The notes under the pieces are model-generated. The model was not told where the DNA came from. It saw only the letters and a list, made by a program, of their open reading frames with translations, and ran no database searches. Below are positions 11,042 through 60,450 of a DNA stretch of 64,000 nt, in pieces (the first letter of the stretch is position 1; the number at the start of each line of letters is the position of its first letter). This DNA comes from an uncultured Thermoleophilia bacterium (lineage in GTDB: Bacteria; Actinomycetota; Thermoleophilia; UBA2241). Made by a program: the position numbers and the translations under genes. The DNA lies in NCBI GenBank assembly GCA_963702475.1, contig CAVPCT010000006.1, positions 256,001 through 320,000 of the forward strand, given 5' to 3'.

Positions 11042-12613
11042 TCAGACGTCGTCCGGGTCCAGCGCTCGCACGTAGGCGACGAGCTCGCGGGTCTCGTCCG
11101 AGTCGATCTTCATGAGGTCGTAGTCCACGAGCACGCCGTTGAAGTACTCGAACGTGGCCAGGTCCGTCACCGGCCCCGCCGGCAGCACGCCGGTGAAGAG
11201 GAAGCCCAGCTCTTCGAGCTGGGATGCGGCCGCCGCGGCGCCGGGCCGCGCCATGTCCACGCTCGCCTCGATCACGCGCAGCTCGGACTCGCGCAGGCGG
11301 CGCAACTCGTCGTGCAGGCGACCGCGCAGGTCGCCGCCGACCCCGGTCACCCGAAGCGTGGCGACCGAGGTCGACGGGTCGAGGCGCACCGTGATGCTCG
11401 TCTCCGCCCGAAGGTCGCGCAGCGCGTCGAGGGCGCCAGGCGGGGACCCGTCCAGCCTGCCTGGCGCGCCTATCCACCCGTAGAGGCGCGCAATCGTGGA
11501 ACGGTGCCGCTCGGGCACGTCCAGCGGCACCGTCGACGGCGCACCGAAGTAGCGGTACATGGTGATCGCCGAGTTCCGATGGTGCGACTGGGCGTCCATG
11601 CCGCGGAACTCGCGGTCCGGCGGGATCGTGGCCAGGCGCACGCCGCAGGTGCCCATGCCGAGCTGCACGTTGAGGTGCTGCGTGAACGGGTGCACCGTGA
11701 TGGCCTCGGCGAAGACCCCGTAGAGGCCCCGGGAGGCAGCCTCCTCCATGAGCATGTCGGCGAGCCGCCGGGCCACGTGCTTGCCGCGCCACGCCCTGCG
11801 GGTCGCGGCGATGCCGAGCTCCGGGACGTCCCGGAGCTCGTCGGGGAACGAGAGGGCGAAGTGGCCGACCACCGTGCCATCGGGGGCTGTGGCCACCACC
11901 GAGATCATGGCCCCGCTCTCGTTCAGCTCGGCGATGCGCAGCGGGTGGTACATGTCCTCGTGCAGGTACGACAGCCGGTACGTGTCGAAGATGCACTCGC
12001 TCACTGAGGCGGCCTGCTCACGGCGCAGCAGGCCGTAAGTGATGCCGTCCGCGTCGGTCGCGGGCGGCGCCTCCCGGGCGTCATCCGGGTCGAGCTCCCA
12101 GAGCTGCTCCACGTCGCCGCCCTGCAGCTCCCAGGCCCCGCGGCCGCCGATCACCAGCGCGTCGTCGTCGCCCTCGGGAAGGTCGTCGTCCCCCACCTTG
12201 CGCGCCGCTGTGTGGTGATGGAACATCATGCGCACCGTCTTGCCGCCGCGCCCCTCGTTGCGGAACTCGACCCAGTCGGCCGAGCCCTCGTCCAGGAGGC
12301 TGCGGACGAACGAGTCGGCCTCGCCGGCCCGGGACGGGTCGAACGGCGGCCCGTCGTCGTGCAGCGTGACCGTGAGTCCGCCGGGGACGACCTCGCAGGT
12401 GACGTCCACCGTCAGCACCTCGTGCGTCGCCTCCAGCACGAGGATCGCCGCCAGCTGCTGCACCACCACCGCCACGCGCTTGCGGGCGTCGTCGCGGAAG
12501 CCGGCCAGGGCGGCGCCCCCTCGCGCCGTGTCGCGCACGAGCCCGAGGAACTCAGGCCGGCTCGGCACGCTGAGTGTCACCCGCCGTGATGCGGCCGTGT
12601 CCGACCCACTCAT
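11042..12613 (-). CDS. RsbW-like HATPase domain fused to a GNAT-fold domain
   Basis: N-terminal LSVPSRPEFL...TLHDDGPPFDP; C-terminal ELGIAATRRAWRGKHVA and EAITVHPFTQ. Confidence 0.75.
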   Translation of the reverse strand: MSGSDTAASRRVTLSVPSRPEFLGLVRDTARGGAALAGFRDDARKRVAVVVQQLAAILVLEATHEVLTVDVTCEVVPGGLTVTLHDDGPPFDPSRAGEADSFVRSLLDEGSADWVEFRNEGRGGKTVRMMFHHHTAARKVGDDDLPEGDDDALVIGGRGAWELQGGDVEQLWELDPDDAREAPPATDADGITYGLLRREQAASVSECIFDTYRLSYLHEDMYHPLRIAELNESGAMISVVATAPDGTVVGHFALSFPDELRDVPELGIAATRRAWRGKHVARRLADMLMEEAASRGLYGVFAEAITVHPFTQHLNVQLGMGTCGVRLATIPPDREFRGMDAQSHHRNSAITMYRYFGAPSTVPLDVPERHRSTIARLYGWIGAPGRLDGSPPGALDALRDLRAETSITVRLDPSTSVATLRVTGVGGDLRGRLHDELRRLRESELRVIEASVDMARPGAAAAASQLEELGFLFTGVLPAGPVTDLATFEYFNGVLVDYDLMKIDSDETRELVAYVRALDPDDV

Positions 12614-12640
12614 GCTGGACCGTTCATCAGCCGGCGGCCG

Positions 12641-13090
12641 TCAGGCAAGCCGGTCGCGAAGCTGTGCCGCCGCGGCACGGTCTTGAGTGGCGCTCTTCTC
12701 GAACGCCTTCTTGCGCGCGCCGAGCAGCTCGCCGCAGCTCGCCACGAACGCCTCGTGGAAGCCGGCGGCGTCTTCCTCAGCTCGGGCCAGCTGCTCCACG
12801 GCGCCCGGCCAGTGGACCTCGGGCTCGGCGTCCAGCGTGCCGAGATAGGCGCCGGCGTCCAGCACCACGGCCACGCCGGCGCTCGCCTCGGTCTCCTGCC
12901 GCGTGGCGGTGAGCTTCGCCACGCGGTCGTCGTGCGTGCAGACGATCTCCTCGAGCTTGTCGCGCCAGACCTGGTCCGGCGCAATGACGCCGGCGGCCGC
13001 CGCGAGGTCGGCGCAGGCCTGCTCGGCCTCCAGTGCGAACCGCAGGGCGGCGCCGTACGTCGTGATGTCGGGGAACTGGTGAGCCACCAC
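12641..13090 (-). CDS. Ferritin/rubrerythrin-like four-helix protein
   Basis: Repeated ALEAE..H and AEEDAAGFH helical pattern; AAAGGAGAGG RBS. Confidence 0.6.
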   Translation of the reverse strand: MVAHQFPDITTYGAALRFALEAEQACADLAAAAGVIAPDQVWRDKLEEIVCTHDDRVAKLTATRQETEASAGVAVVLDAGAYLGTLDAEPEVHWPGAVEQLARAEEDAAGFHEAFVASCGELLGARKKAFEKSATQDRAAAAQLRDRLA

Positions 13091-13162
13091 CTCTCCTTTG
13101 GTCGTGTCTTGTCGGGGCCGTCCTACCCGGCCGCGCAGTTCCCCTATCGGCTGCGTGGCACG

Positions 13163-13204
13163 AAAAGCGGAGGGTGGGGGAGCCGTGAAGCTCCCCCACC
13201 CTCC
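13163..13204 (-). terminator. Rho-independent terminator of the aldehyde dehydrogenase gene
   Basis: 15-bp perfect stem GGAGGGTGGGGGAGC/GCTCCCCCACCCTCC followed by TTTT on the minus strand. Confidence 0.8.
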
Positions 13205-13250
13205 TCCGGTCAGACGGTGCCGGCGGTCCGCGCCGCGCGCGGAACGTGCC

Positions 13251-14786
13251 TCACCACTGCTTGTTGACGGTGCCCTCCCAGGTGCCGACCTTCTTCTCCT
13301 TCTTCTCCGCCTCGGTGAACCAGCGCGAGGTGACGCACTTGCTCTCGGTGAAGAAGCGGATGCCGTCGAGGCCGAACACGTGGCTCTCGCCGAAGAACGA
13401 GTCCTTGTGGCCGGCGAACGGGAAGAAGCTCACCGGCACCGGGATGCCGACGTTGATGCCGACCATGCCGGCGTGCGTGCGCTTGGCGAACTCACGCGCA
13501 TAGTAGCCGCTCTCGGTGAAGATGCAGGAGCCGTTGGCGAAGCGGCTGTTGTTCATGATCGTGATGCCCTCTTCGAAATCCTCGACGCGCTTGATCCCGA
13601 GCACTGGGCCGAAGATCTCCTCGCGGCCGACCTCCATGTCTTCGGTCACGTGGTCGAAGATCGTCGGGCCGACGAAGAAGCCGTTCTCGAAGCCGGGGAC
13701 GACGAGGTCGCGACCGTCGAGGATGAGGTCGGCGCCCTCTGCGACGCCCTTGTCGATCCAGCCCTTGACGAAGGCCTGGTGGCCGGCCGAGACGACCGGG
13801 CCGAGCTCCGTCTTGGGATCGTAGGAGCAGCCGACGACGCGCTGCTTGGCGAACTTCATCATGTAGCCGATGAACTCGTCGGCGATGGAGTTCTCGACCA
13901 CGATCACGGGCAGCGCCATGCAGCGCATGCCGGCGCAGCCGAAGGTCGAGTTGATGATGCCCGCGGCGGCGCGTTCCAGGGAGGCGTCGGCCAGCACGAG
14001 GCCGTGGTTCTTGGCCTCGGTCTGCGCCTGGACGCGCTTGCCGTGCGCGGCCGCCAGCGAGTAGACGTGCTTGCCGACGCTGGTCGAGCCCACGAAGGAG
14101 ACGCCGCGCACCAGCGGGTGGGTCATCATGAGCTCGGCCTCGGTGCGCGAGCAGGTCACGACGTTGACGACGCCCTTGGGCAGGCCGGCCTCGTAGAGCA
14201 GCTCGAGCAGGCGCATGCCGGTCGTCGGCACCATGCTGGCCAGCTTCAGGACGAGGGTGTTGCCGGTGACGATGCACAGCGGCAGCATCCAGCCGAAGGG
14301 GATCATGCCAGGGAAGTTGAAGGGCGCGATGCCGGCGAACACGCCGATCGGCTCGCGGTAGCTCACGGTGTCGTGCCCGGTGGACACGTTCATGAGCGAC
14401 TCGCCCTTCATGGTCATCGGGGCGGAGACGCCGACCTCGCAGCCCTCGATGATCTTGATGACCTCGCCGCGCGCCTCGTCGAGGTTCTTGCCGAGCTCGC
14501 GCGAGCAGAGATAGGTGATCTCCTCGGCGTGCTCCTCGAGCAGGGCCTTCCAGCGGTAGAGCACCTGGGTGCGCTTCTGGATCGGCGTCGTCGACCAGGT
14601 CTGGAACGCCCTGTGGGCGCTCTCGATGGCGGCCTCGACCTCTTCGGCCGTGCAGCACGGAGCCTCGGCGAACACCTCGCCGGTGGAGGAGTCGGTGACC
14701 GGCATGTAGGTGTCGGTGGCCGATTCGCGCCACTCGCCGTCGATGCAGTACTTCAGGGTCTTCACTTCTGTCACTGCCTGGGCCAT
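13251..14786 (-). CDS. mmsA: CoA-acylating methylmalonate/malonate-semialdehyde dehydrogenase
   Basis: PFNFP, SFVGST, AKNH, FGCAGMRCMA, EEIFGPV, GMVGINVGIPVP. Confidence 0.93.
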   Translation of the reverse strand: MAQAVTEVKTLKYCIDGEWRESATDTYMPVTDSSTGEVFAEAPCCTAEEVEAAIESAHRAFQTWSTTPIQKRTQVLYRWKALLEEHAEEITYLCSRELGKNLDEARGEVIKIIEGCEVGVSAPMTMKGESLMNVSTGHDTVSYREPIGVFAGIAPFNFPGMIPFGWMLPLCIVTGNTLVLKLASMVPTTGMRLLELLYEAGLPKGVVNVVTCSRTEAELMMTHPLVRGVSFVGSTSVGKHVYSLAAAHGKRVQAQTEAKNHGLVLADASLERAAAGIINSTFGCAGMRCMALPVIVVENSIADEFIGYMMKFAKQRVVGCSYDPKTELGPVVSAGHQAFVKGWIDKGVAEGADLILDGRDLVVPGFENGFFVGPTIFDHVTEDMEVGREEIFGPVLGIKRVEDFEEGITIMNNSRFANGSCIFTESGYYAREFAKRTHAGMVGINVGIPVPVSFFPFAGHKDSFFGESHVFGLDGIRFFTESKCVTSRWFTEAEKKEKKVGTWEGTVNKQW

Positions 14787-48139: not shown

Positions 48140-48907
48140 TCACCCGCCGAGCGGGCGCAGGTGCGCGCTCGCGACCCGCCGCTTGCAGCGGTCGCACAGG
48201 TCGTCGCTGCCGTCGATCCCGTGGGTCTGGGAAGCCGCCATGGCCGCGGCGTGCTCGCGCGTGGTGATCGGCCTGCCGCAGTGCTCGCAGGGCAAGAGCT
48301 CGAACGTGCGCCCCCAGATCGTGCGTGTGGTGGGTGTGTCCCCCATGCCGATGCACGCGGTGGGGCAGACTTCGTGACAGGATCCGCAGCCCACGCAGTT
48401 GAGGGCCGTCTCCTGCCCGTACGGCGGGCCGATGTACTTGTGGTCGCCGCGGCCGATCGCTGCGAGCGCGCTGTAGCCCAGGGCCGCGCACACGCGCACG
48501 CAGAGCTCGCAGAGGATGCAGTCCGGGAGAGGGGCGCCGGTCAGGGGCGCGAAGCGTGGCTCCGCGGCTCCGAGTCGGGCGGCCAGCCGCTGAAGGACGG
48601 GGGCCCGTGGCGCGCGACGCAGCAGGAGCTGCACGTTCATGAGCCGGTGCTTGCGGATGGCCGGCGAGTCGGTGACCACATCGAGGCCGTCGGACGCAGG
48701 GTAGTCGCACGAGGTGGTCAGCTGCGTCCAGTCGCGGCCCGGCCGCCGGATCTCGACCAGGCAGAGCCGGCACGACGCGACGGCCGGCACCCCCTCGTTG
48801 TGGCAGAGCGCCGGCACGTCGCGCCCGGCACGGCGAGCGGCGTCGAGGACGCTCGCGTCGGCGGGCGCCGTCACCTGTTCGCCGTCGATGATGAGCGATA
48901 CGTCCAC
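48140..48907 (-). CDS. Fe-S subunit, NuoG/HydA N-terminal-like, without catalytic domain
   Basis: [2Fe-2S] LCH..SCRLC..SC; CILCELCVRVC and CVGCGSCHEVCP; C-terminal CEHC..CDRC. Confidence 0.88.
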   Translation of the reverse strand: MDVSLIIDGEQVTAPADASVLDAARRAGRDVPALCHNEGVPAVASCRLCLVEIRRPGRDWTQLTTSCDYPASDGLDVVTDSPAIRKHRLMNVQLLLRRAPRAPVLQRLAARLGAAEPRFAPLTGAPLPDCILCELCVRVCAALGYSALAAIGRGDHKYIGPPYGQETALNCVGCGSCHEVCPTACIGMGDTPTTRTIWGRTFELLPCEHCGRPITTREHAAAMAASQTHGIDGSDDLCDRCKRRVASAHLRPLGG

Positions 48908-48916
48908 GGCGCCCTC

Positions 48917-50770
48917 CTACCGCACCAGCACGGCGTCGTACTTGCACACGTCTTTGCAGATGCCGCACTTGATGCAGAGCTCCTGGTCGATCGCGTGCGG
49001 CTGCTTCTTCTGGCCGGTGATCGCTTCCTGCGGGCAGCGGCGTGCGCACAGCATGCAGCCGGTGCACGACTCCGCGTCGATACTGAATGCGATGAGCGCC
49101 TTGCACACACCCGCGGGGCAGCGCTTCTCGTCCACGTGCGCGAGGTACTCGTCGCGGAAGTAGTGCAGCGTCGACAGCACCGGATTGACGGCGCTCGTGC
49201 CCAGGGCGCACAGCGAGGTGGCCTCCACCGTGTCTGCGAGCTCCTCTACCAGGGCGAGCGTCTCGCGCGTGCCGCGGCCTTCGGCGATCTCGCCAAGCAG
49301 CTCGTGCAGGCACTCGAGACCGTCGCGGCACGAGGTACAGTTGCCGCACGACTCCGAGGCCAGGAAGCGGAGGAAGTACCTGGCGACGTCCACCATGCAC
49401 GTGTCTTCGTCCATGACGATCATGCCGCCCGACCCCATCATGGAGCCCTCGGCCACGAGCGTGTCGAAGTCCACGGGCACGTCCAGCTTCTCCGCAGGCA
49501 GGCAGCCTCCGGACGGCCCGCCGGTCTGGACTGCCTTGAACGCCTTTCCCCCCGGGATGCCGCCGCCGGCGTCGAAGATGATCTCGCGCAGGCTCATGCC
49601 CATCGGGACCTCGACCAGGCCGGTGTTGTTCACCTTGCCGACCAGGGAGAAGATCTTCGTCCCCGGAGAGCCGTCTGTGCCGATCGCACGAAACCACCCG
49701 GCGCCGTTGAGCACGATGTGCGGCACGTTGGCCCAGGTCTCCACGTTGTTGACGTTGGTCGGCCGACCCCACAGCCCGTGTTCTGAGAGATGGATGAGCC
49801 GCCGGTGCGGCACGCCGCGGCGGCCCTCCAGCGACGCCATCATGGCGCTCGCCTCGCCGCACACGAACGCGCCGCCGCCGCGGCTCACGCGCACGTTGAG
49901 GCACAGACCGCTCCCGAGGATGTCGTCGCCGAGCAGGCCGAGCTCGCGCGCCTGACCGATGGCCACGTCGAGGTGCTCCACGGCCAGTGGGTACTCCTGA
50001 CGCACGTACACCACACCCTCTCGGGCCCCGATGGCGAAGGCCCCGATGGTCATGCCCTCGAGCACGCTGTGAGGGTTCCCCTCGAGGATCGAGCGATCCA
50101 TGAAGGCGCCCGGATCGCCCTCGTCGGCGTTGCACACCACGTACTTGAGGTCTCCCTCCGCCCTGCGGCAGGCCTCCCACTTGCGACCGGCGGGGAAGCC
50201 CGCTCCGCCCCTGCCCCGCAAGCCCGAGCGCTTGACCTCGTCCAGGACGGCCTCCGGGCCCAACTCCAATGCCTTGGCGAGCGCCGAATAGCCGCCGACG
50301 GCGATGTAGTCGTCGATCGAGGTGGGGTCGCGCCGGCCGGCGTCGCGCAAGAGGAGCCGCTCCTGGTAGCGGTAGAAGGGGATCTGGTCCTCGCGGGTGT
50401 GTCGCAGGCCGGTCGCCGGGTCCTCGTACAGCAGACGCTCGAGCACTTCGCCGTTCAGCAGGGCCTTCTCGACGAGCTCGGGCACGTCCTCCACGCGCAC
50501 GCGCTGGTAGAGGATACCCTTGGGGTAGAGGAGCACGAGCGGCCCGCGCTCACAGAACCCGTGGCAGCCGGTCGCCCGCATCGTGACCAGGCAGTCCGAG
50601 CCGAGTGCCTCGAGTTCGTCGCACAGGGCCCGGAACACCTTCATGGCGCCTTGCGCCCGGCAGCCCGTCCCGCCGCAGACGGCGACGACCGTAGCGGCGG
50701 CGTCCCGGCCCGCGACCAGCGCGTCGCGGTGGCTGCCCAGAGAGCCGGGGTCGGCGAACCGCGCGCTCAC
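48917..50770 (-). CDS. HydB/NuoF-like FMN/NAD-binding subunit (long form)
   Basis: N-terminal CGGTGC..GCHGFC; LRGRGGAGFP; CNADEGDPGAFMDR; GGPSGG; ESCGNCTSC; C-terminal 2x[4Fe-4S]. Confidence 0.93.
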   Translation of the reverse strand: MSARFADPGSLGSHRDALVAGRDAAATVVAVCGGTGCRAQGAMKVFRALCDELEALGSDCLVTMRATGCHGFCERGPLVLLYPKGILYQRVRVEDVPELVEKALLNGEVLERLLYEDPATGLRHTREDQIPFYRYQERLLLRDAGRRDPTSIDDYIAVGGYSALAKALELGPEAVLDEVKRSGLRGRGGAGFPAGRKWEACRRAEGDLKYVVCNADEGDPGAFMDRSILEGNPHSVLEGMTIGAFAIGAREGVVYVRQEYPLAVEHLDVAIGQARELGLLGDDILGSGLCLNVRVSRGGGAFVCGEASAMMASLEGRRGVPHRRLIHLSEHGLWGRPTNVNNVETWANVPHIVLNGAGWFRAIGTDGSPGTKIFSLVGKVNNTGLVEVPMGMSLREIIFDAGGGIPGGKAFKAVQTGGPSGGCLPAEKLDVPVDFDTLVAEGSMMGSGGMIVMDEDTCMVDVARYFLRFLASESCGNCTSCRDGLECLHELLGEIAEGRGTRETLALVEELADTVEATSLCALGTSAVNPVLSTLHYFRDEYLAHVDEKRCPAGVCKALIAFSIDAESCTGCMLCARRCPQEAITGQKKQPHAIDQELCIKCGICKDVCKYDAVLVR

Positions 50771-51282
50771 GACGGCTCCTCGGCAGCCAGGAGCTCGCCG
50801 ACCAGCCGGGAGAGACGCTCACTGGTCATGTGGCCGTGGTAGTCGTCGTCGAGGAGGACGAGCGGGCCGAGGGCGCAGGCGCCCACGCAGCTCACCTCCT
50901 CGACGGTCAGCGATGAGTCGGGTGCGGTGCCGCCGGCCGCCACACCGGTGTCGCGCTCCAGCTGCTCTAGCAGCCGCGGCGCACCTCGCACGTGGCAGGC
51001 GGTGCCCATGCAGACGGTACAGGTGTGCCTGCCGCGGGGCTCGGTGCGGAAGCCGTGGTAGAAGGTCGCCACCCCGTAGACCTGTGTCTCCGACAGCACG
51101 ACGTGGGACGCCGTCTCACGCATGGCCGCCTCCGGCAGGTAGCTGAACTCGGCCTGCAGGTCGTGCAGGATGTTCACGAGGTCGCCCGGGTCACGCCGGG
51201 GGTAGCGGGCAAGGACCGACGCGATCCGGCTCTGGTCGGTCGCCGCGTCGCTCACCGTCTCGTCCTTCCGGCGGTCCATCAT
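50767..51282 (-). CDS. HydC/NuoE-like [2Fe-2S] subunit
   Basis: VYGVATFY, VCMGTACHVRG, CVGACALGP. Confidence 0.93.
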   Translation of the reverse strand: MMDRRKDETVSDAATDQSRIASVLARYPRRDPGDLVNILHDLQAEFSYLPEAAMRETASHVVLSETQVYGVATFYHGFRTEPRGRHTCTVCMGTACHVRGAPRLLEQLERDTGVAAGGTAPDSSLTVEEVSCVGACALGPLVLLDDDYHGHMTSERLSRLVGELLAAEEPS

Positions 51283-51291
51283 GCCGTCCTC

Positions 51292-51564
51292 TCAGCCGCC
51301 GGCGATCATCGGGAAGACGGAGATCTCGTCGTCGTCCCCGAGCGGCGTGTCCAGCCCCTGCAGGTGCCGCACGTTGCGGCCGTTGACGAGGATGATGATC
51401 TCGGCGTGCAGAGCCTCCCCGTCGAACACGGTGCGCCGGAACAGCCGGCCGTAGCGCTCCGCGAGCTGCGTGAGCAGCTCGCGGAGATCGCTCGGTCGGC
51501 CGTCGATCCGGCGCTCCTGCTCCCTCGTGAGGGAGCGGATGGTGGCGAAGTACTTGACCGTCAT
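51292..51564 (-). CDS. MoaD/ThiS-family sulfur carrier
   Basis: VKYFATIR, ILVNGRN, C-terminal FPMIAGG; ATGA overlap with the aor stop. Confidence 0.92.
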   Translation of the reverse strand: MTVKYFATIRSLTREQERRIDGRPSDLRELLTQLAERYGRLFRRTVFDGEALHAEIIILVNGRNVRHLQGLDTPLGDDDEISVFPMIAGG

Positions 51565-53369
51565 GCCTTGAGCGAGAGCTCCTTCAGCTTCGCCTTGCTC
51601 GGCACGCCGTCCTCGTCCCAGCCCCGCTTCGCGTAGTAGTCGGGCACCATGTGGCCGAGCTTGCTCACGTGGCCCTTGGATGCGCCGCTCTTGATGGGCT
51701 CTTCGAGCAGCCGCCTGGGCAGCGTGTCGTCGTCCTTGGTGAACCCGGCGGCGATGTTCCAGAGCTTCTCCTGGTTCCAGATCCGATCGCCGATGAGCAG
51801 GAACTCCTGGAGCGTGTAGTCCTCGCCGGTGAGCGCGGACAGCATCTCCGTGAGCTCCTCGCCACCGATGCCGAAGGTCGAGAACAGGCACGCGCCGGTC
51901 GCGTCGAGCGCGGCCGTGAGGTTCTGGAAGGCGATGCCGAGGCCAGCCTTCTCGTCGGGGCTGTGCGGGTCTGAGCTGCCGCCGCTCTGCAGGATCTCGT
52001 GCGAGATGGTGTAGCCGCGCACGTGGCAGCCGCCGCGGTTGCTGGTCGCGTAGTTGAGGCCGATGCCCTGGATGGCGCGGGCGTCGTAGGCCGGCATCTC
52101 CTGCTTCTTGGCCGTCATGGAGTACTCGGGGTGGCCGTAGCCGTCCGCCAGGCGGTGGGAGCCCTGGGCGATCTTGGCGCCGAAGCCCTCGCCCTCGCCC
52201 GCCTTGCGCGTCATCTCGACGATCGCGGCGGCGTTGCCGAAGCTCAGGTCCACGCCGTCGGTGTCGGCGGTCGTGATGATGCCGCGCTGGAACAGCTCCA
52301 TCGCGCAGGCGATCGTGGAGCCCGTGGAGATGGTGTCCATGCCGTACTCGTTGCACAGGTAGTTGGCCTTGGTGATGGCGTCCAGGTCGTCGACGCCGCA
52401 GTCGGCGCCGTAGGCCCAGGCGGTCTCGTACTCGGGGCCTTCGCCGATGCCCTCGTAGCCGGGGGCGTCGACCTTGGTGACGCGGCCGCAGGAGATGATG
52501 CAGCTGAAGCAGCCCTTCTTGCGGATCAGCTGCTTGGCGGCCAGGGACTCGCCGCCGGTCTTGTCGGCCGTCGGGAAGTACGCGTCCTGCCAGTTGCGAG
52601 TGGGCAGGCCGCCGGACTGGTTGAGGATGTTGACGAGCACGTCCGTTCCGTAGGCCGGCAGGCCGGTGCCGCCGACGGGGTGGTCGAAGATCAGCTGGCG
52701 CGCCTTGAGCACGGCCGCCTTGAAGCCCTCGGGGTCGGCCACCTGGACGGCGCCGGTGCCGAGTACGGCGACCGCCTTGAGGTTCTTGGAGCCCATCACC
52801 GCGCCGACGCCGGTGCGTCCCGCGGCGCGGTGCATGTCGTTCATGATGTTGGCGACCAGCGCCAGGTGTTCGCCGGCCGGGCCGATGCAGGCGACCTTGG
52901 CGTCGTCGTCGGTCTCGGCCCTGACCAGGTCGGTGGTGTCGGGCACGGTGTGGCCCCAAAGGGCCGCCGCGTCGCGGATCTCGACCTGGTCGTCCTTGAT
53001 CCACAGGTACACGGGCTTGGCGGCCTTACCCTCGATGATGACGGCGTCGTAGCCGGCGTACTTGACCTCCGGGCCGAAGTTGCCGCCCGAGTTGGAGGCG
53101 GCCAGCGAGTCGTTGAGGGCGCCCTTGGTGACGACGTTGTAGCGCCCGGCGGACGGCGCGAAGGTGCCGGTCAGCGGCCCGGTCGCGAAGACGAGCTTGT
53201 TCTTGGGCCCGAGGGCGTCCGCCTTGGGGTCGACCTCGGCGCGGATGATGGCGCCGCCCAGGCCGCGCGCGCCGATGAAGTCACGGGCGAGCTTGCGGTC
53301 GAGGGCCTCGCGGGTGACGCTGCCGCTGGTGAGGTCGATGCGGAGGATCGTTCCGGTCCAGCCGTACAT
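51561..53369 (-). CDS. aor: Aldehyde:ferredoxin oxidoreductase family (tungstopterin) large subunit
   Basis: MYGWTGTILRIDL, GPLTG, IGPAGE, RAAGRTGVGAVMGSKNLKA, CFSCIISC, GPEYET, NRGGCH, YYAKRGWD. Confidence 0.95.
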   Translation of the reverse strand: MYGWTGTILRIDLTSGSVTREALDRKLARDFIGARGLGGAIIRAEVDPKADALGPKNKLVFATGPLTGTFAPSAGRYNVVTKGALNDSLAASNSGGNFGPEVKYAGYDAVIIEGKAAKPVYLWIKDDQVEIRDAAALWGHTVPDTTDLVRAETDDDAKVACIGPAGEHLALVANIMNDMHRAAGRTGVGAVMGSKNLKAVAVLGTGAVQVADPEGFKAAVLKARQLIFDHPVGGTGLPAYGTDVLVNILNQSGGLPTRNWQDAYFPTADKTGGESLAAKQLIRKKGCFSCIISCGRVTKVDAPGYEGIGEGPEYETAWAYGADCGVDDLDAITKANYLCNEYGMDTISTGSTIACAMELFQRGIITTADTDGVDLSFGNAAAIVEMTRKAGEGEGFGAKIAQGSHRLADGYGHPEYSMTAKKQEMPAYDARAIQGIGLNYATSNRGGCHVRGYTISHEILQSGGSSDPHSPDEKAGLGIAFQNLTAALDATGACLFSTFGIGGEELTEMLSALTGEDYTLQEFLLIGDRIWNQEKLWNIAAGFTKDDDTLPRRLLEEPIKSGASKGHVSKLGHMVPDYYAKRGWDEDGVPSKAKLKELSLKA

Positions 53370-53370
53370 C

Positions 53371-53853
53371 TCAGCTCACCTCCTGGAAGGCATCCTTGAA
53401 CTTCGCCGCGTAGGCCTTCTTGCGGGCCTTCACCTGGGCGTCGTCGTCCAGGTACTCCAGGGCCTTGGTGGGGCAGAAGGCGACGCACTCGGGCGCGCCC
53501 TGGCAGTTGTCGCACTTGAAGATGCTGCTGGAGGCCGCGTCGTAGCGGGCGTTGCCGAACGGGCAGGCGATCACGCACATCTTGCAGCGGATGCACTTGG
53601 CCTCGTCGTAGTCGATGAGGCCGGCGATCGTGTAGCTGGGGTGCATGGCTCCGGTGGGGCAGACGGTGACGCAGGCTGCGTCGTCGCACTGCTGGCACAT
53701 CATCGGCACCGAGATGCCCTCGCGCTCCCAGGTGAACGCCTGGACGCGCGAGGCTCCCGGACGGAACCTGCCCTCGTGCTCGAACGAGCACGCGAGCTCG
53801 CAGTTGCGGCACCCGGTGCACTTGTCCGGGTGGATCATCAGGACCTTGGCCAT
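53371..53853 (-). CDS. 4x[4Fe-4S] DmsB-like small subunit of AOR
   Basis: CTGCRNCELAC, CQQCDDAACVTVCP, CIRCKMCVIACP, KCDNC..CVAFCP; AGGAGG RBS. Confidence 0.93.
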   Translation of the reverse strand: MAKVLMIHPDKCTGCRNCELACSFEHEGRFRPGASRVQAFTWEREGISVPMMCQQCDDAACVTVCPTGAMHPSYTIAGLIDYDEAKCIRCKMCVIACPFGNARYDAASSSIFKCDNCQGAPECVAFCPTKALEYLDDDAQVKARKKAYAAKFKDAFQEVS

Positions 53854-53947
53854 GGCATCCTCCTGCTGGGAGCACTGTTGCCGCCGGCGCGGCCGGCCGG
53901 GAGCGCGCCGCTCTGCGTGTGCGGCGGACCGTCGATCCAGAGGATGC

Positions 53948-54014
53948 TGCACACGCCCCTGGGCGGCGAGTCGACGGGCGACCACTCTTGGCCGTGGCGG
54001 ATTGGGCGTGTGCA
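53948..54014. promoter_or_regulatory. Inverted repeat pair upstream of the AOR operon (candidate regulator site)
   Basis: TGCACACGCCC (53948-53958) and GGGCGTGTGCA (54004-54014), 45 nt apart. Confidence 0.5.
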
Positions 54015-54089
54015 CAGGCGCCGCTCTCGCGGGCTGCCGCGAGGGGCGGCCTCGCCCGACGCGTGCCGAGGCCGCACCGGGGGGTGCGG

Positions 54090-55574
54090 CTAGCTGGAAG
54101 GCTCGCCGAGCAGCTCGGCCGCGTGCAGACCGAGGCGCACGTCGACGACCGCGTCCAGGTCGCCGAGGTCGACACCGAGCAGCTGCTCGACGTGGGCGAG
54201 GCGTTTCTGCAGCGTGTTGCGGTGGATGTGGAGCGCGTCGGCCGTCTCCTGGACGGCGAGCCGGCGCTCGAAGTAGGTACGCAAGGTCGCGTACAGGCTG
54301 GCGCGGTGCTGCGCGTCGTAGTCCAGGACCGGGCCGAAGGTCCGCGCGACGATGCCGGTCAGCTCCTGCTCGTCGAGCGCGTCGAGGAGGCGGAAGTGGC
54401 CGCTCAACTCCTCGAAGACGCCGCCTTCGCCGGGGTTGTGCGCGAGGCGCGCGGCGATGCAGGCTGCCTTGGCCTGCTGCAGCCCGCGGGCGGCGCCGAT
54501 GACCCCACCGAGCGGCGCCGAGCAGCCTGCAACGACGCCGCCGTCGCTGACCGGCGCGGCGGCATCGCGTAGACCGGCGAGCAGGCCTCGCGCCGTGCCG
54601 GGCCCGGCGTCGGGCACGGCGGTGAGGATGACCGCCCTGTGGTCCACCGACGCCGTCAGATAGGGGACGCGGCGCGCGCTCAGCGCAGCGTCCAGCGCGT
54701 GCAGCAGGTCAGCCTCGCGACCGGCGGCCTTGTCCGTCCGCATGGTCCTGGCTGCCGGGTCGAGCGGCTCGACGACGGCCAGACGGAGCACGGCATCGTC
54801 GGCGAAGCCTTGGGCCTGCAGCCGCACCCGCAGCTCGTCGGGCGTGCCGTCGCCGTTGAGCACGTCGTGGAGCAGTCCGCGGCGCAACCTGCGCCGCATG
54901 CGCAGCTCGTCCTTGCCGCGCAGCAGGTCCAGGGCCACGAGCTGCTGCATGAAGACGAGCGAGGCGCCGGCGAACTCCGACGGCCGGTGCCGGCCGATCC
55001 TGGCCGCGAGGACCCGCTCGACCCTGCCCATCACGAGCACGTCGCGGAAGGACACGCGCTCGCCGGTGCTCGTGATGGATGCCGCGTCGGCCTGGCGGTC
55101 CCGCTCCTCGTAGGCGGCCCACAGGCTCCGCTCGAGTTCCGGTGCGGCGCCGGCGCTGCGCGAGGCGCACACCACGTGGCCCTGCGGGTCGAAGAGGACG
55201 AGGGGGACGTCGAGGATCGAGGCGACCCGCTCGACCAGTTCGGCCACGTCCTTCTGCTGGACGACGAGCTCGAGAAGCTGGATCTGCAGCGCGGCGGTGC
55301 GCCGCAGCGTCTGCATGTCGCCGGCGGCCGTAGCCGGCCCCCCATCCTCGTCGTGCTCCTGACGCCTGAGCGCCTCCTCGAGTTCCTCGGTGTGCAGGCG
55401 CACCTGGTCCTGCAGCATGATCGTCGTCTGAAAGAGGCCGAAGTCCGAGCCCTGGACCTTCGTCCCGGCCTCCGCACGGTCCATGAGTGCGTCGACCACC
55501 TTGTTGAGCCGCACGATCTCGGCCTTCAGGGCTTGAACGTCGTCGCCGGGGGCGTTGTGCGAGAGGTCAGTCAT
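54090..55574 (-). CDS. PucR/CdaR-family regulator with N-terminal FIST-partner coiled coil
   Basis: C-terminal LYATLRTYF..TADALHIHRNTLQKRL HTH; N-terminal LKAEIVRLNKVVDALMDRAE..FGLFQTTIMLQDQVR. Confidence 0.88.
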   Translation of the reverse strand: MTDLSHNAPGDDVQALKAEIVRLNKVVDALMDRAEAGTKVQGSDFGLFQTTIMLQDQVRLHTEELEEALRRQEHDEDGGPATAAGDMQTLRRTAALQIQLLELVVQQKDVAELVERVASILDVPLVLFDPQGHVVCASRSAGAAPELERSLWAAYEERDRQADAASITSTGERVSFRDVLVMGRVERVLAARIGRHRPSEFAGASLVFMQQLVALDLLRGKDELRMRRRLRRGLLHDVLNGDGTPDELRVRLQAQGFADDAVLRLAVVEPLDPAARTMRTDKAAGREADLLHALDAALSARRVPYLTASVDHRAVILTAVPDAGPGTARGLLAGLRDAAAPVSDGGVVAGCSAPLGGVIGAARGLQQAKAACIAARLAHNPGEGGVFEELSGHFRLLDALDEQELTGIVARTFGPVLDYDAQHRASLYATLRTYFERRLAVQETADALHIHRNTLQKRLAHVEQLLGVDLGDLDAVVDVRLGLHAAELLGEPSS

Positions 55575-56709
55575 CGTCCCGTCCGCCGCCGAAGGCGATC
55601 GCCGTGAGTGTCTGGTTCACGTGGACCCCGCAGAACTGCTCCCCGTAGGTGTTGAAGCCGATCGCGTTGTTCCGCCGCAGCACCTTGCTCACGGCGTCGC
55701 GCTGGCCGCTCTGGTCGATCTCGAGCTTGCGGAGGATGCAGTCGAACGTCAGCACGAGCTGGGGAGGCCCGACCTGGGCGCGAGCGCGGGCCAGGGCCGC
55801 CTCGAGGTTGTCGACCAGGTCGACGCCTCTGGCGATGCGCAGGACCACGCCACGGTCGATGGCGCAGTAGAGCTTGAGCCCGTCCGGCTCGACGCGCTGG
55901 ATGGAGCGCACGTACTCGCTCCCGTCTACGAGGACGACCATCGGCGAGGCGGCGAAGTGCGCCGGGCCCAGCTCGGCGGGGTCGATGCCGAGCAGGCGCG
56001 CGTATTCCTCGGCCGCCGGCAGCCCGTTGATCTCACGCACCAGGCGCCTGGCCGGGTCCGCCTCCGTCACCACGAGGCGCTCATCGGTGGCCGTGAAGTG
56101 CTGGGTCTTGAACTCGGCGATGGGCAGCGGCGTGGCGGCGAGCACGAGGACGGCCGCGTCGCGCGAGAAGCGGCCGTCGCAGTAGACGTAGGTCCCCTCG
56201 AAGTCCAGCGAGTCCCCCGCGGAGCCGCCGACGAGTGGGATGTCGCCGAGCCCCTCCTGCAGCGCGTGGGCGACCTGCTCCTCGTGCCCGAACAGGCCGT
56301 CGACGAGGAGGAAGGCGAAGGTGTTCCACGTGCCGTCCCCGACGAGGTCGCCCAGCCGGCGGCGCAGGTCCTGGGCGACGGCGACGCCGTCCGCGCTGCG
56401 GAAGGAGTCGAGCCCCTCGAGGCGCCCGATGACCGCGGTGCAGACACGCGCTGCGAAGCTCACGCCGGCGAGGCTGTGCTCCCGGCAGCCGGCCGGGCCG
56501 ATCTCGCCGGCGGTGGTGCAGCCGACCACGGGCACGCCGGCGAAGCGGACGGCCATCTCCGCCGCGAGCGCGTCGCGGTCGTAGCGGCTCGAGCAGAAGA
56601 ACAGCACCAGCGACGCGTCGGGCTGTGTGATGCTGTCGTGCAGCTCAGCCGCAGCCTCGCTGGGGTCGTGTGCGCATGACTGTGCGATGCGGATGGTCTC
56701 GTCGGCCAC
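55567..56709 (-). CDS. nosP: FIST-domain sensor, NosP-like
   Basis: LVLFFCSSRYD, GCTTAGEI, LLVDGL, GGSAGD, EINGLPAAEEYAR, YVRSIQ, YCAIDRG, DCILR, GFNTYGEQ..HVNQT. Confidence 0.88.
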   Translation of the reverse strand: MADETIRIAQSCAHDPSEAAAELHDSITQPDASLVLFFCSSRYDRDALAAEMAVRFAGVPVVGCTTAGEIGPAGCREHSLAGVSFAARVCTAVIGRLEGLDSFRSADGVAVAQDLRRRLGDLVGDGTWNTFAFLLVDGLFGHEEQVAHALQEGLGDIPLVGGSAGDSLDFEGTYVYCDGRFSRDAAVLVLAATPLPIAEFKTQHFTATDERLVVTEADPARRLVREINGLPAAEEYARLLGIDPAELGPAHFAASPMVVLVDGSEYVRSIQRVEPDGLKLYCAIDRGVVLRIARGVDLVDNLEAALARARAQVGPPQLVLTFDCILRKLEIDQSGQRDAVSKVLRRNNAIGFNTYGEQFCGVHVNQTLTAIAFGGGRDDD

Positions 56710-56839
56710 AAGCAGCCCCTGCTCGCCGTCGGTCCGGGGCTCTGCCCCGTGCGTAGTCAAGGGCCCATGATACTGCGGAGCCCTCCCTGCGGTGCTGCCT
56801 CGCGGCGTGCCGCTGAGTATGGGGTACAGTGGGGACCAG

Positions 56840-57052
56840 ATGGAGACGCTCGGCATTGTGGCTCTTGTCGTTGGACTCGCCTTGGTGGCGCTGCTGGCGG
56901 CTGCGCTGATCTGGTGGATCGCCAGGCGCATCGGTCGCGCCACGGGACTGGACCGCAAGGTCGACCAGTTCCTGGAGATCGATGGCGACGGCATGTCGCC
57001 GGAGGACCAGCTGAAGTTCCGCGAGCAGCACCCGGGCGGCGGGGGGGCGTGA
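56840..57052 (+). CDS. Small single-TM protein
   Basis: Hydrophobic N-terminal helix and GC3-biased codons. Confidence 0.55.
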   Translation: METLGIVALVVGLALVALLAAALIWWIARRIGRATGLDRKVDQFLEIDGDGMSPEDQLKFREQHPGGGGA

Positions 57053-57225: not shown

Positions 57226-59184
57226 GTGCACGCTGTCGACAAGATCCGCAACCTCGCCATCATCGCCCACATCGATCACGGCAAGACCACGCTGATCGAC
57301 AGCATCTTCCGCGCCGCCCACGTGTTTCGCGACAACGCGCGCGTCGAGGAGCGCGTGATGGACAGCAACGACCTGGAGCGGGAGCGCGGCATCACCATCC
57401 GCTCCAAGCACTGCACGGTGGAGTGGAAGGACTACCTCATCAACATCATCGACACGCCGGGCCACGCCGACTTCTCCGGCGAGGTGGAGCGCGTGCTCAG
57501 CATGGTCGACTCGGTGCTCCTTCTCGTGGACGCCAACGAGGGCCCCATGCCGCAGACGCGCTACGTGCTCATGCGGGCGCTCGGGTTCGGGCTGCGGCCC
57601 ATCGTCATCGTGAACAAGGCCGACCGGCCGAACGCCGACCCGTCCGGCGCCCTCGACAGGACCTTCGACCTCTTCGTGGAGCTGGGCGCCAGCAACGAGC
57701 AGCTGGACTTCCCAGTGCTCTACGGCTCGGGCCTCGAGGGTTGGATCGTCAACGACATCGACGAGTACAAGAAGGAAGAGCACGAGCGCGAGGAGCACCT
57801 CCACGACGGCGCCGGGCTCTCGCCGGCGCTGTTGCGGGAGCTGGCCGACGCCGGCATGAACGACCTCTTCGAGACGATCGTCGAGAAGGTGCCGGCGCCC
57901 CAGGTGGTCCAGGACGCGCCCTTCCTCATGCAGGTCAGCACGCTCGCCTGGAGCGACTACATCGGGCGCATCGGCTGTGGCCGCGTGCTGCAGGGCGGCC
58001 TGAAGGTCGGCGACGAGCTGCAGCGCATCACGACGCGGCACCTGGAGGTCGGCGATCCGGACGCCGGCTGGGAGATCACGGGTTCGCAGTCCGCCCGTGT
58101 GACCCACGTCTGGGTGACGCGCGGCCTCGAGAACCGCGAGGTGGACGAGGCGGTGGCCGGCGACATCGTCTGGCTCGCCGGCCCCGACGACATCACCCTC
58201 GGCGACACCCTGACCGCGCCCGGCCTGGAGCCGGACGCCGCGGCCCTGCCGCCACTCGAGATCGAAGAGCCCACGGTCTCCATGTTCTTTCTCGTGAACA
58301 ACGGCCCGTTCGCCGGCCAGGACGGCAAGGCCGCCACGCTGCGCCAGATCAAGGACCGTCTGGATCGAGAGCTGCGCGTCAACGTCGCGCTCCGTGTGGA
58401 GGACCTGGGGCGGCCGGACGGCGTCAAGGTGTCCGGCCGCGGCGAGCTGCACCTTGCCATCCTCATCGAGGAGATGCGCCGCGAGGGCATGGAGCTGTGC
58501 GTGAGCCGGCCCGAGGTCATCACCCACCGCGACTCGGCGGGCCACCTCATGGAGCCGATGGAGCAGCTGATCATCGACGTGCCCGAGGAGTACCAGGGCG
58601 CGATCATCCAGGAGATCAGCCTGCGTAAGGGCGAGCTCGTCGCCGTGGAGGCCACCGGCACCGGCCTGGTGCGACTGGAGTTCACGATCACGACACGCGG
58701 GCTCATCGGCTACCGCAACGACTTCCTCACGGAGACGCGCGGCCTGGGCGTGATGAGCTCGCGGTTCACCGGCTATGGCCGCTGGAAGGGCGAGCTCCCC
58801 GGGCGCGAGCGCGGATCGCTGGTGAGCCAGGCGGCCGGTGAAGCGGCGAGCTACTCGCTCGAGAACCTGCAGCAACGCGCGACCCTCTTCGTGACGAACA
58901 TGACGCCGGTCTACGAGGGCATGATCGTCGGTGAGAACTCGCGCGCCGACGACATGCTGTGCAACCCCACCAAGCGCAAGCAGCTTGGCAACTACCGCTC
59001 GTCCACCAAGGAGATCGACGCCGGCCTCAAGGTGCCGCGCCCGCTCACCCTGGAGTCGGCCCTCGAGTGGATCGCCGACGACGAGCTCGTCGAGGTGACG
59101 CCCAAGATCGTGCGCGTGCGCAAGCACATCCTCAGCTCAGAGCAGCGCAAGAAGTTCGAGAAGCACGGGGCGGCCGAGGCCTGA
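57226..59184 (+). CDS. typA: Translational GTPase TypA/BipA
   Basis: [49 protein letters not shown]. Confidence 0.96.
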
Positions 59185-59776: not shown

Positions 59777-60450
59777 TCAGAGCCTGCGCAGCTCCGCTAT
59801 GGCCTCTGCGATGATCGCCTGCTGCCGCTCGATCTCGTCGAGCAACTCCTCGGGCGTGCGCATGTCCTCCTCGATGATCCGGTGCGGGTTGACCGCCTTG
59901 AGGTCGTAGTTGCTCGTCTCGATGGCGTCGCGAGTCACCGTCCAACGCCGCTCGGAGTCCGGCCGTCCCACTGTCCCGGCCGCGCGACGATCGCCGACGA
60001 GTTCGAAGAACTCCTCCATGCGCACCAGCGTGAACGGCGTCTTCTTGCCGACCTTTAGGTCGCTCCGGTCGTGGTACCAGATGCGCTCGGTGGGCCGGCC
60101 CTTGTTGAATAACAGGAGGTTGGCCTTCACGCAGGCGCCGACCTGGCTGAACACGCCGGGCGGCACGCTGACGATGCACCGCAGGTCGCAGTCGTCGAGG
60201 AGCTTGCGCTTGGTCTGGACGAAGGCGGTCTCGTTGGTGCGGAGCAGGACGCCCTCGTCGATGACGAGGCCGCGGCGGCCGCCGGTGAGCGTGTTGCCGT
60301 GCCACAGGTGCGGCGCGTCGATGCCGTGCAGTACCACGTTGGCGAGCGCGATGGGGTAGTTGGCGTTGTCCTTCTCGCGGCCGTAGAGGGTGCGATCCTG
60401 CAGCGTGACGAGCTGGTCGGCGCAGGTGATCTTGCCGTTGCCGGCCCCTG
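59777..60450 (-). pseudogene. hsdM: Type I R-M methyltransferase (hsdM) fragments
   Basis: LYGREK..ALANVVLHG..GNTL, then VIDEGVLL..IVSVPPGVF..NYDLKAVNP; FxDPAxGT and NPPF motifs are missing. Confidence 0.78.

Follow-up and report, generated by a model that had tools for sequence, protein, structure and literature searches.

A gene array on the minus strand of a 64,000-nucleotide stretch of DNA from an uncultured Thermoleophilia bacterium (assembly GCA_963702475.1, contig CAVPCT010000006.1, positions 256,001 to 320,000; hereafter the window) encodes a NosP-like sensor of the FIST family, a PucR-type transcription regulator and, directly downstream, the enzymes of an aldehyde-oxidation operon. 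The regulator opens with a helix-loop-helix module of about 60 residues, which is shared with the kinases and GGDEF/EAL proteins that act as partners of NosP-type sensors; the array is best read as a two-protein, phosphorylation-free signalling cassette that would control aldehyde oxidation, an interpretation to which we assign a probability of roughly 0.6. An earlier note on this DNA had proposed a FIST sensor wired to a PucR-type factor, and this interpretation is supported; contact between sensor and module, contact between regulator and operator, activation rather than repression, and the signal itself are what we infer from the data. The note did not mention the likely target, i.e. the operon that follows the regulator. 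The new elements are thus a NosP sensor-partner cassette with a transcription factor as the partner, and a predicted operator and regulon.

Gene calls based on third-position G+C content, combined with Pfam assignments, give the order FIST/FIST_C, PucR-type regulator, aorA-like gene, aldehyde:ferredoxin oxidoreductase (AOR), NuoE- and NuoF-like genes, in a region with a G+C content of about 70%. The features are:

56765..56776, minus strand: conserved -10-like box GCAGTATCATGG, about 60 nucleotides (nt) upstream of the FIST start, from sequence conservation
55567..56709, minus strand: FIST/FIST_C NosP-like stand-alone sensor gene, 380 amino acids, GTG start
54090..55574, minus strand: PucR-type transcription regulator, 494 amino acids, ATG start
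55365..55541, minus strand: codons of regulator residues 12-70, the helix-loop-helix module, from profile, blast and NahK/ErcS' model matches
54120..54296, minus strand: codons of the PucR C-terminal helix-turn-helix (HTH), residues 427-485, Pfam HTH_30, E 9.1e-18
53924..54018, minus strand: predicted promoter/operator block upstream of aorA, from the alignment of 24 promoters
53371..53853, minus strand: aorA-like poly-[4Fe-4S] ferredoxin subunit, 160 amino acids, open reading frame (ORF) with Pfam Fer4 families
51561..53369, minus strand: aldehyde:ferredoxin oxidoreductase of the tungstopterin AOR family, 602 amino acids, Pfam AFOR_N E 7.2e-79 and AFOR_C E 1.2e-143
50767-51282, minus strand: NuoE-like 2Fe-2S protein, Pfam
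48917-50770, minus strand: NuoF-like FMN/NADH subunit, Pfam
48140-48907, minus strand: 2Fe-2S/4Fe-4S protein, Pfam

The sensor gene is full-length, with Pfam FIST at residues 34-229 (E 2.9e-45) followed by FIST_C at 232-359 (E 3.3e-26), and its last nucleotides (55567-55574) are common to the regulator ORF, so that the 8-nt overlap described in the earlier note is confirmed by the coordinates; the GTG start is backed by orthologues with ATG at the equivalent position. A stand-alone FIST + FIST_C protein in the range of 370-400 residues, encoded directly upstream of a module-bearing partner, is what characterizes NosP, and the same arrangement was found in 26/26 relatives of the window locus and in 16/16 plasmid records. 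The NCBIfam NosP model NF041558 is matched along its whole length (positions 1-368 of 368, E 5.9e-128) with 427 bits, under the cut-off of 450; the protein is therefore named NosP-like, not NosP. Fused kinases listed by NCBI as NosP have a FIST part with 55-57% identity to the window protein; for FISTs on proteobacterial plasmids, the identity is 36-57%. A sequence search of the PDB at E <= 0.01 found no related solved structure. Alignment of 12 FISTs from two phyla revealed 48 invariant positions, including C64, C324, H363, R268 and D137.

The second protein is a transcription factor of the PucR/CdaR type, characterized by a C-terminal HTH_30 domain, where the earlier note had placed it, preceded by a GGDEF-like domain (GGDEF_2, residues 241-371, E 3.7e-8). 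Neither HisKA nor HATPase_c was found by Pfam, which assigns only GGDEF_2 and HTH_30; the Pfam analysis of the window ORFs found no kinase or receiver gene near the pair. The claim that a PucR-type factor stands here in place of a kinase or cyclase is borne out by these results: the regulator is not a NahK, although its control may resemble that of NahK, and since the partner is a DNA-binding protein devoid of kinase core, receiver and Hpt, no phosphotransfer or c-di-GMP step is needed. An AlphaFold2 model, obtained from 29 sequences (mean predicted local distance difference test score 73.0, predicted template modelling score 0.43), contains helices 9-36 and 44-74 and, after a brief interruption, a helix 80-105, a GAF-like alpha/beta domain (110-193), a long helix 199-240, the GGDEF-like domain (245-377) and the HTH region (402-488); model confidence is low for the two N-terminal helices, with block means of 44-61. 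The best Foldseek matches of the model are the C-terminal fragment of Rv2242/MabR (9f80, E 5e-9) and BAD_0249 (3onq), and the sensor-like domain groups with the GAF domains of CodY.

The N-terminal domain usually found in these regulators, PF07905, was not detected, and no Pfam family matches residues 1-110 or 79-240 even at E <= 10. Comparison with paralogues indicates what has taken its place. In 14 loci from the genome scan, the match is confined to regulator residues 81-491 (34-50% identity); PF07905, GGDEF_2 and HTH_30 are all present in 3/3 of the paralogues checked, and in the nearest one PF07905 spans residues 22-127. The paralogue from the same genome bin as locus L004 aligns only from its residue 134 onward with regulator residues 83 to the end (37% identity, E 4e-57); thus, the first 82 residues of the regulator occupy the place of PF07905. 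This agrees with the proposal that the N-terminal segment was grafted onto a DNA-binding regulator, as the paralogue holds PF07905 where the regulator holds the module.

The module, residues 12-70, is a conserved helix-loop-helix that is not described by any Pfam family, even at E <= 10. The regulator sequence MTDLSHNAPGDDVQALKAEIVRLNKVVDALMDRAE...FGLFQTTIMLQDQVRLHTEEL is as quoted in the earlier note, the quotation beginning at residue 16; its likeness to NosP partners, suggested there, is confirmed by sequence comparison. Positions 8-64 of the NCBIfam NahK/ErcS' model match regulator residues 13-69, weakly (E 8.5e-4) but in register; a search of longer proteins with residues 8-72 gave two matches among 72 candidates, an 881-residue PAS-kinase-receiver-Hpt hybrid kinase (P0123) and a 969-residue PAS-GAF-GGDEF-EAL protein (P0124), both of which carry the module in their first 70 residues, with 64% and 56% identity, respectively. 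The same module opens NahK-type kinases and GGDEF/EAL proteins. A profile built from 12 segments (A2) and scored against 1.84 billion representatives retrieved 978 cluster representatives (50% identity clusters) at E <= 1e-3, 328 of them at E <= 1e-10. Among the best 150 of the 978, the match starts within the first 57 residues in 144; Pfam assigns GGDEF to 38 (five also with EAL), kinase domains to 37, only PAS/GAF to 25 (many of them fragments), a full PucR arrangement to two, SpoIIE to one, only FIST to two and odd partial transporter matches to two, while 43 are without domain. FIST is present in five of these 150, namely the two with FIST only and three tallied under GGDEF or kinase. When blastp against regulator residues 80-240 is used, eight of the same 150 are of the PucR type, so DNA-binding output is a small minority. 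The SpoIIE case is P0165, a protein of 357 residues called RsbU-type by a source; here the module is combined with a SpoIIE/PP2C phosphatase domain, another non-kinase output.

Seventeen module positions are kept in 90-100% of 153 sequences (E19, R22, L23, K25, L30, M31, R33, E35, S43, F45, F48, Q49, L54, V58, R61, T62 and L65); among them, R22 and E35 reach 100%, L30 99%, E19, F48 and L54 98%, T62 97%, K25 95%, R33 94% and Q49 91%. The window regulator carries H at position 61. These values bear on a simpler explanation, in which the segment is merely a general coiled-coil dimerization or signalling helix, the regulator senses an effector such as an aldehyde or an acid through its own GAF-like domain, and FIST is only co-expressed or acts elsewhere. 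Such a role would fit the prediction of two long helices with a heptad-like hydrophobic seam, the presence of the GAF-like domain, and the poor conservation of the linker between module and core. However, a plain coiled coil does not need E19, R22, K25, R33, E35 and Q49, which are kept at 91-100% across kinases, cyclases and PucR-type proteins, nor does it account for the exact co-occurrence of the module with NosP-type FIST, or for the module-less paralogues being without a FIST neighbor; we regard this explanation as quite improbable.

The co-occurrence itself was established by tblastn on 55 loci: 34 contain module and FIST together, and the remaining 21 contain neither; these comprise the 14 PucR paralogue loci (FIST not found in 14/14), six distant PucR loci and one truncated locus. 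In each of the 16 plasmid records that contain the module, the gene immediately before it is a FIST gene, and in five Azospirillum records the pair is annotated as nosP and NahK/ErcS family kinase. In seven of the eight plasmid pairs measured, FIST and partner overlap by at most 8 nt or are at most 4 nt apart; in the eighth, from Halomonas, the sole start found is a TTG located 32 nt inside the FIST gene. Fused proteins lead to the same picture. Among 41 longer FIST proteins (E <= 1e-10, from 8000 scored candidates), the module lies directly after FIST_C in 27/27 of those whose FIST is at least 41% identical to that of the window, with kinase or PAS-GGDEF outputs, and in 0/14 of those whose FIST is at most 34% identical, which are HD-GYP and chemoreceptor types; the PucR HTH was not found in any of the 41. 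These fusions are not assembly artefacts, since some sit on contigs of 4.7 and 5.1 Mb. The module is the sole part common to all partners of NosP-type FISTs, and the sequence comparisons provide a strong inference that it is the contact or transmission element between FIST and its partner. NosP was reported to bind its kinase in a two-hybrid assay, the approximately 130 N-terminal residues of the kinase containing no recognized domain (PMC12570481).

The PucR-type form of the cassette is not limited to the window. A search of 8000 scored candidates gave 165 relatives of the regulator at E <= 1e-3; most of the best 120 of the 165 are full length and 47-84% identical, and the few organism names given by the sources are Thermoleophilia. 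The genome scan revealed 27 orthologue-type loci, all in metagenome-assembled genomes labelled Thermoleophilia, Actinomycetes or Actinomycetota, with one exception labelled Alphaproteobacteria. FIST is directly upstream of the regulator in 26/26 of those with upstream DNA, and a pairing kept in all of these related loci is more than chance. Of 27 systems (the 26 loci and the window), 21 show or imply an 8-nt overlap, one has a 4-nt overlap, one a 6-nt gap and four are without an assigned junction. The Alphaproteobacteria-labelled bin is L022 (CAWFJG010000021.1), where the 3' end of the regulator (81% identity) and the promoter block described below (E 5.1e-21) lie at a contig end; it is probably mis-binned. 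Two different FIST-PucR systems, L012 and L017, whose regulators are 59% and 71% identical to that of the window, are present in one genome bin, therefore the cassette can be duplicated. The architecture is lineage-restricted and uncharacterized. The earlier note knew of no description of it, and a literature search for 'FIST domain' with 'PucR', whose coverage did not extend to the original NosP and FIST papers, gave no match.

Upstream of FIST, the box GCAGTATCATGG is unique in the window and is matched in 0/100 shuffles; its degenerate form, RSTATCATRR, is matched once in each of 21 loci, always at the equivalent position before FIST, with just two further matches in the 55 loci. Judging from this conservation, the FIST-regulator operon probably has its promoter here. 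In L007, L009, L018, L020, L025 and L026, the stretch from the -10-like box to the FIST start codon contains an operator-like half site, TGTGCRCGGGACCACAC, some 45 nt before the latter; it hints at autoregulation in this clade, and is absent from the window. Operator-like matches inside the FIST genes of L016 and L021 were dismissed as coding coincidences.

The search for other FIST + PucR pairs and their neighbors, which the earlier note had suggested, also pointed to a target. Of the 26 loci compared downstream, one ends inside the regulator, leaving 25 that can be assessed in addition to the window; aldehyde-oxidizing genes come next on the same strand in 25/25. In 17 of them the genes are syntenic with those of the window, i.e. 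aorA and AOR with NuoE/NuoF-like genes, aorA being 82-91% identical in these same loci. The other 8/25 carry an NAD-type aldehyde dehydrogenase (Aldedh), followed by DUF779 in 3/3 loci whose next ORF was scanned (L005, L006 and L020). One genome carries first the dehydrogenase and then the AOR operon (L007 and L025, in the latter at 11591-13315 and from 13889 on); in L025 the dehydrogenase is preceded by a second, weakly matching promoter block (E 0.16). In the window, a catalytic subunit made up of AFOR_N and AFOR_C lies next to a poly-ferredoxin subunit, as expected of a tungsten AOR operon; this predicted operon (48140-53853, minus strand) combines aorA and AOR with NuoE-like, NuoF-like and 2Fe-2S/4Fe-4S genes. 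In the bacterial AOR described from Aromatoleum, an FAD subunit takes their place; the electron module of the window operon may thus be of another kind, NAD(H)-linked or bifurcating.

The gap between regulator and aorA is 236 nt, and in this intergenic DNA a block of about 95 nt is conserved. When the 24 promoters are aligned, GTGC and the arm GCGACCA are followed, about 18 nt on, by the arm TGGTCGC, then by a TCGAC-type hexamer with an invariant T and, 17 nt later, by CATNNT, with invariant C, A, T and final T. In the window the inverted repeat has its left arm at 54003-54015 and its right arm at 53978-53986, while the -35-like TCGCCG is at 53964-53969 and the -10-like CATCCT at 53941-53946. 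The repeat lies upstream of the -35-like hexamer, where an activator site would sit; if the hexamers are read as -35 and -10 elements, its center would fall near -60, a usual activator position. An nhmmer model trained on the 17 AOR promoters only was used to search 47 loci and the window, about 0.9 Mb. It recovers 7/8 Aldedh promoters (E 1.5e-12 to 1.8e-3, L020 being missed) and also the untrained L022 and L025; no other match below E 0.1 was found in this set. Thus, one promoter block is common to two unrelated operons; in the 24 systems that have it, it lies immediately after the regulator gene and nowhere else.

Complementarity between the two arms of the repeat reaches 82% of cells, compared with 23-54% when slid, and covariation in the arms is not above shuffles; an RNA hairpin was therefore rejected, and the repeat fits a protein site better than an RNA stem. 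No Rfam match was found in the window at gathering thresholds. These data also concern the possibility that the block is the site of a different factor or serves as an RNA leader, and that the FIST-PucR pair regulates other genes. An 8-bp G+C-rich hairpin starts at the last base of the regulator stop codon (54071-54090, minus strand; -19.6 kcal/mol, z -3.7, with 1/200 shuffles equally stable) and lacks a U tract; it is possibly a terminator dividing the regulator from the AOR transcript. A hairpin of this strength at the end of the regulator gene means that the regulator and the AOR operon are probably separate transcripts, a point in favor of an independent control. Against it stand the confinement of the block to the DNA directly downstream of the regulator gene, its association with two unrelated target operons, and the lack of Rfam match and covariation; control by another factor or an RNA leader is very improbable.

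The preferred interpretation, i.e. direct control of aldehyde oxidation by the cassette, would then work as follows. A cytoplasmic NosP-like FIST sensor would be co-produced with a PucR-type activator by means of the overlapping genes, the activator having exchanged its usual N-terminal PF07905 domain for the helix-loop-helix module. The sensor would bind the module, and its ligand state would switch the regulator on or off. The operator bound by the regulator would be the inverted repeat, centered some 60 nt before the point where the aorA-AOR-NuoEF-like operon probably starts; from there the regulator would activate this promoter, in which the -10 box is weak.

Several observations weigh against this scheme. 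Residues 70-85, which join the module to the core, show poor conservation and are modelled in part as non-helical, hence the rigid helical transmission expected in kinases and cyclases is not evident here, and the retained GAF-like domain, as modelled, could itself sense a ligand. By its sequence score, the sensor falls below the NosP cut-off. On the DNA side, exact GACCA N10-24 TGGTC gives two matches in the window versus 1.16 expected, none of them in the promoter; the left arm in the window deviates (ACGCCCA instead of GCGACCA), which is the reason why a profile was used in place of the exact repeat pattern, and a scan of 53800-54150 for sigma-70 promoter and terminator consensus found none. 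Lastly, all the PucR-type loci are metagenome-assembled genomes of one actinobacterial lineage, thus part of the synteny may be due to shared ancestry.

As for the signal, family precedent points, by analogy, to heme or nitric oxide (NO), while gene context points to alcohol/aldehyde metabolism or redox state. NosP proteins have been reported to respond to heme and NO (PMC12570481, PMC13259868, PMC8846402). The same relay could therefore operate with a canonical NosP sensor, which would bind heme and report NO or heme, so that production of the Fe-S/tungsten enzymes or of the thiol-dependent aldehyde dehydrogenases would be confined to permissive NO or heme conditions. The full-length match near the NosP cut-off, the identity to fused proteins named NosP, the published responses and the invariant H363 are in line with such a sensor; conversely, a review describes ligand binding by FIST-FIST_C as little known (PMC8846402), and NO alone leaves the recurrent alcohol/aldehyde gene context unexplained. 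The canonical version is held tentatively, with the odds somewhat against it.

This gene context recurs outside Actinomycetota. In a small and biased sample of 16 plasmid records, five of which are from Azospirillum, 11/16 have a close aldehyde dehydrogenase and/or a pyrroloquinoline quinone (PQQ) alcohol dehydrogenase within 8 kb; the aldehyde dehydrogenases near the plasmid pairs are 66-70% identical to the Thermoleophilia one and usually accompanied by DUF779. Three Sinorhizobium records show just a 34-35% PQQ-family match at the locus edge, and two Variovorax records have neither enzyme; in one of the latter (L049) an array of FIST, short kinase and receiver-PAS-GGDEF-EAL is found. With the Sinorhizobium records included, 14/16 place the pair in an alcohol/aldehyde oxidation cluster. 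Overall, FIST-module pairs lie beside Aldedh + DUF779, PQQ alcohol dehydrogenases or AOR in Actinomycetota, Alpha- and Gammaproteobacteria. The window FIST is closer to the c-di-GMP-type Variovorax FIST (57% identity) than to alphaproteobacterial ones (36-46%), which indicates that the link with aldehyde metabolism crosses FIST lineages and does not belong to one subfamily. In Pseudomonas, nosP-nahK homologues were reported to belong to the ped/exa alcohol oxidation cluster (PMC12997753), and PA1976 (ErcS') is listed in the control network of ethanol oxidation, with 'possible cytosolic metabolites' as the signal (PMC5812489). In FBXO22, a human FIST protein, aldehydes are reported to capture a cysteine of the FIST_C part (PMC12583737), which offers no more than a lead for the invariant C64 and C324. 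A bolder proposal is that NosP-type FIST plus module forms a universal portable sensor-receiver cassette, chiefly reporting alcohol/aldehyde oxidation, with NO or heme not being the primary signal; the signal would be an aldehyde, perhaps acting through the invariant C64 and C324, or a redox consequence, and the Thermoleophilia form would be its simplest variant, converting ligand state straight into DNA binding. We consider this proposal unlikely; if it were true, all the NosP partners of any genome could be predicted from the module sequence by itself.

The pair can be compared with several known systems. Differently from the window, the NosP-NahK/NosK systems, such as PA1975-PA1976 (PA1976 being ErcS') of Pseudomonas, NosP-NosK-NosR of Burkholderia and NosP-NahK-NarR of Legionella, have a kinase as the partner; in the window it is of the PucR type, lacking kinase core, receiver and Hpt, and the host is actinobacterial (Thermoleophilia-like). 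Common traits are the stand-alone FIST/FIST_C gene located upstream, the translational coupling to a partner that opens with the same module of about 60 residues and, for Pseudomonas, the location in an alcohol/aldehyde oxidation cluster (PMC12997753, PMC5812489). The fused FIST-module-kinase and FIST-module-PAS-GGDEF proteins, such as those of Halomonas and Billgrantia named NosP by NCBI, have a FIST 55-57% identical to that of the window with the same module next to it, but they are single polypeptides with enzymatic outputs. With PucR/CdaR regulators (PucR, GabR, IppR, MabR/Rv2242 and BAD_0249) the window protein shares the core of GGDEF-like domain and HTH_30, in agreement with the fold matches 9f80 and 3onq; published members activate catabolic operons (PMC7652997, PMC13599513). 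In its nearest paralogue, conversely, PF07905 is retained, whereas here it is replaced by the NosP-partner module and a separate sensor is encoded upstream. Finally, H-NOX proteins with their partner kinases or cyclases offer a parallel in which an auxiliary gas/heme sensor is encoded beside, and acts on, a separate output protein (PMC8846402); however, the FIST sensor fold is unrelated to that of H-NOX, and a transcription factor partner of this kind is not involved in that parallel.

Other features surround the array. On the opposite strand, upstream of FIST, lie a small ORF and bipA (57226-59184); the former (56840-57052, plus strand, 70 codons), located between the FIST promoter and bipA, has an N-terminal hydrophobic stretch resembling a single membrane helix. 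Further on, an ORF at 59777-60337 (minus strand) covers just positions 175-302 of the 311-position N-6 DNA methylase model and looks like a remnant or a mis-called start.

The locus isolates the element common to NosP partners, a module of about 60 residues with a sharp signature that lies outside Pfam models, and thus bears on how NosP proteins recognize and control their partners; a review describes the propagation of signals from FIST-FIST_C as little known (PMC8846402). Here the output joined to the module is of another type, a transcription factor whose operator and target can be predicted, resulting in a system of two proteins and one DNA in which sensing, docking and output would each be measurable in vitro. 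NosP-type sensors are tied to alcohol/aldehyde oxidation across phyla, and this bears on the natural signal that they detect. For the Thermoleophilia bacterium, the presence of a sensor and a module-bearing regulator beside aldehyde-oxidizing genes suggests a one-step route from sensor to gene control.

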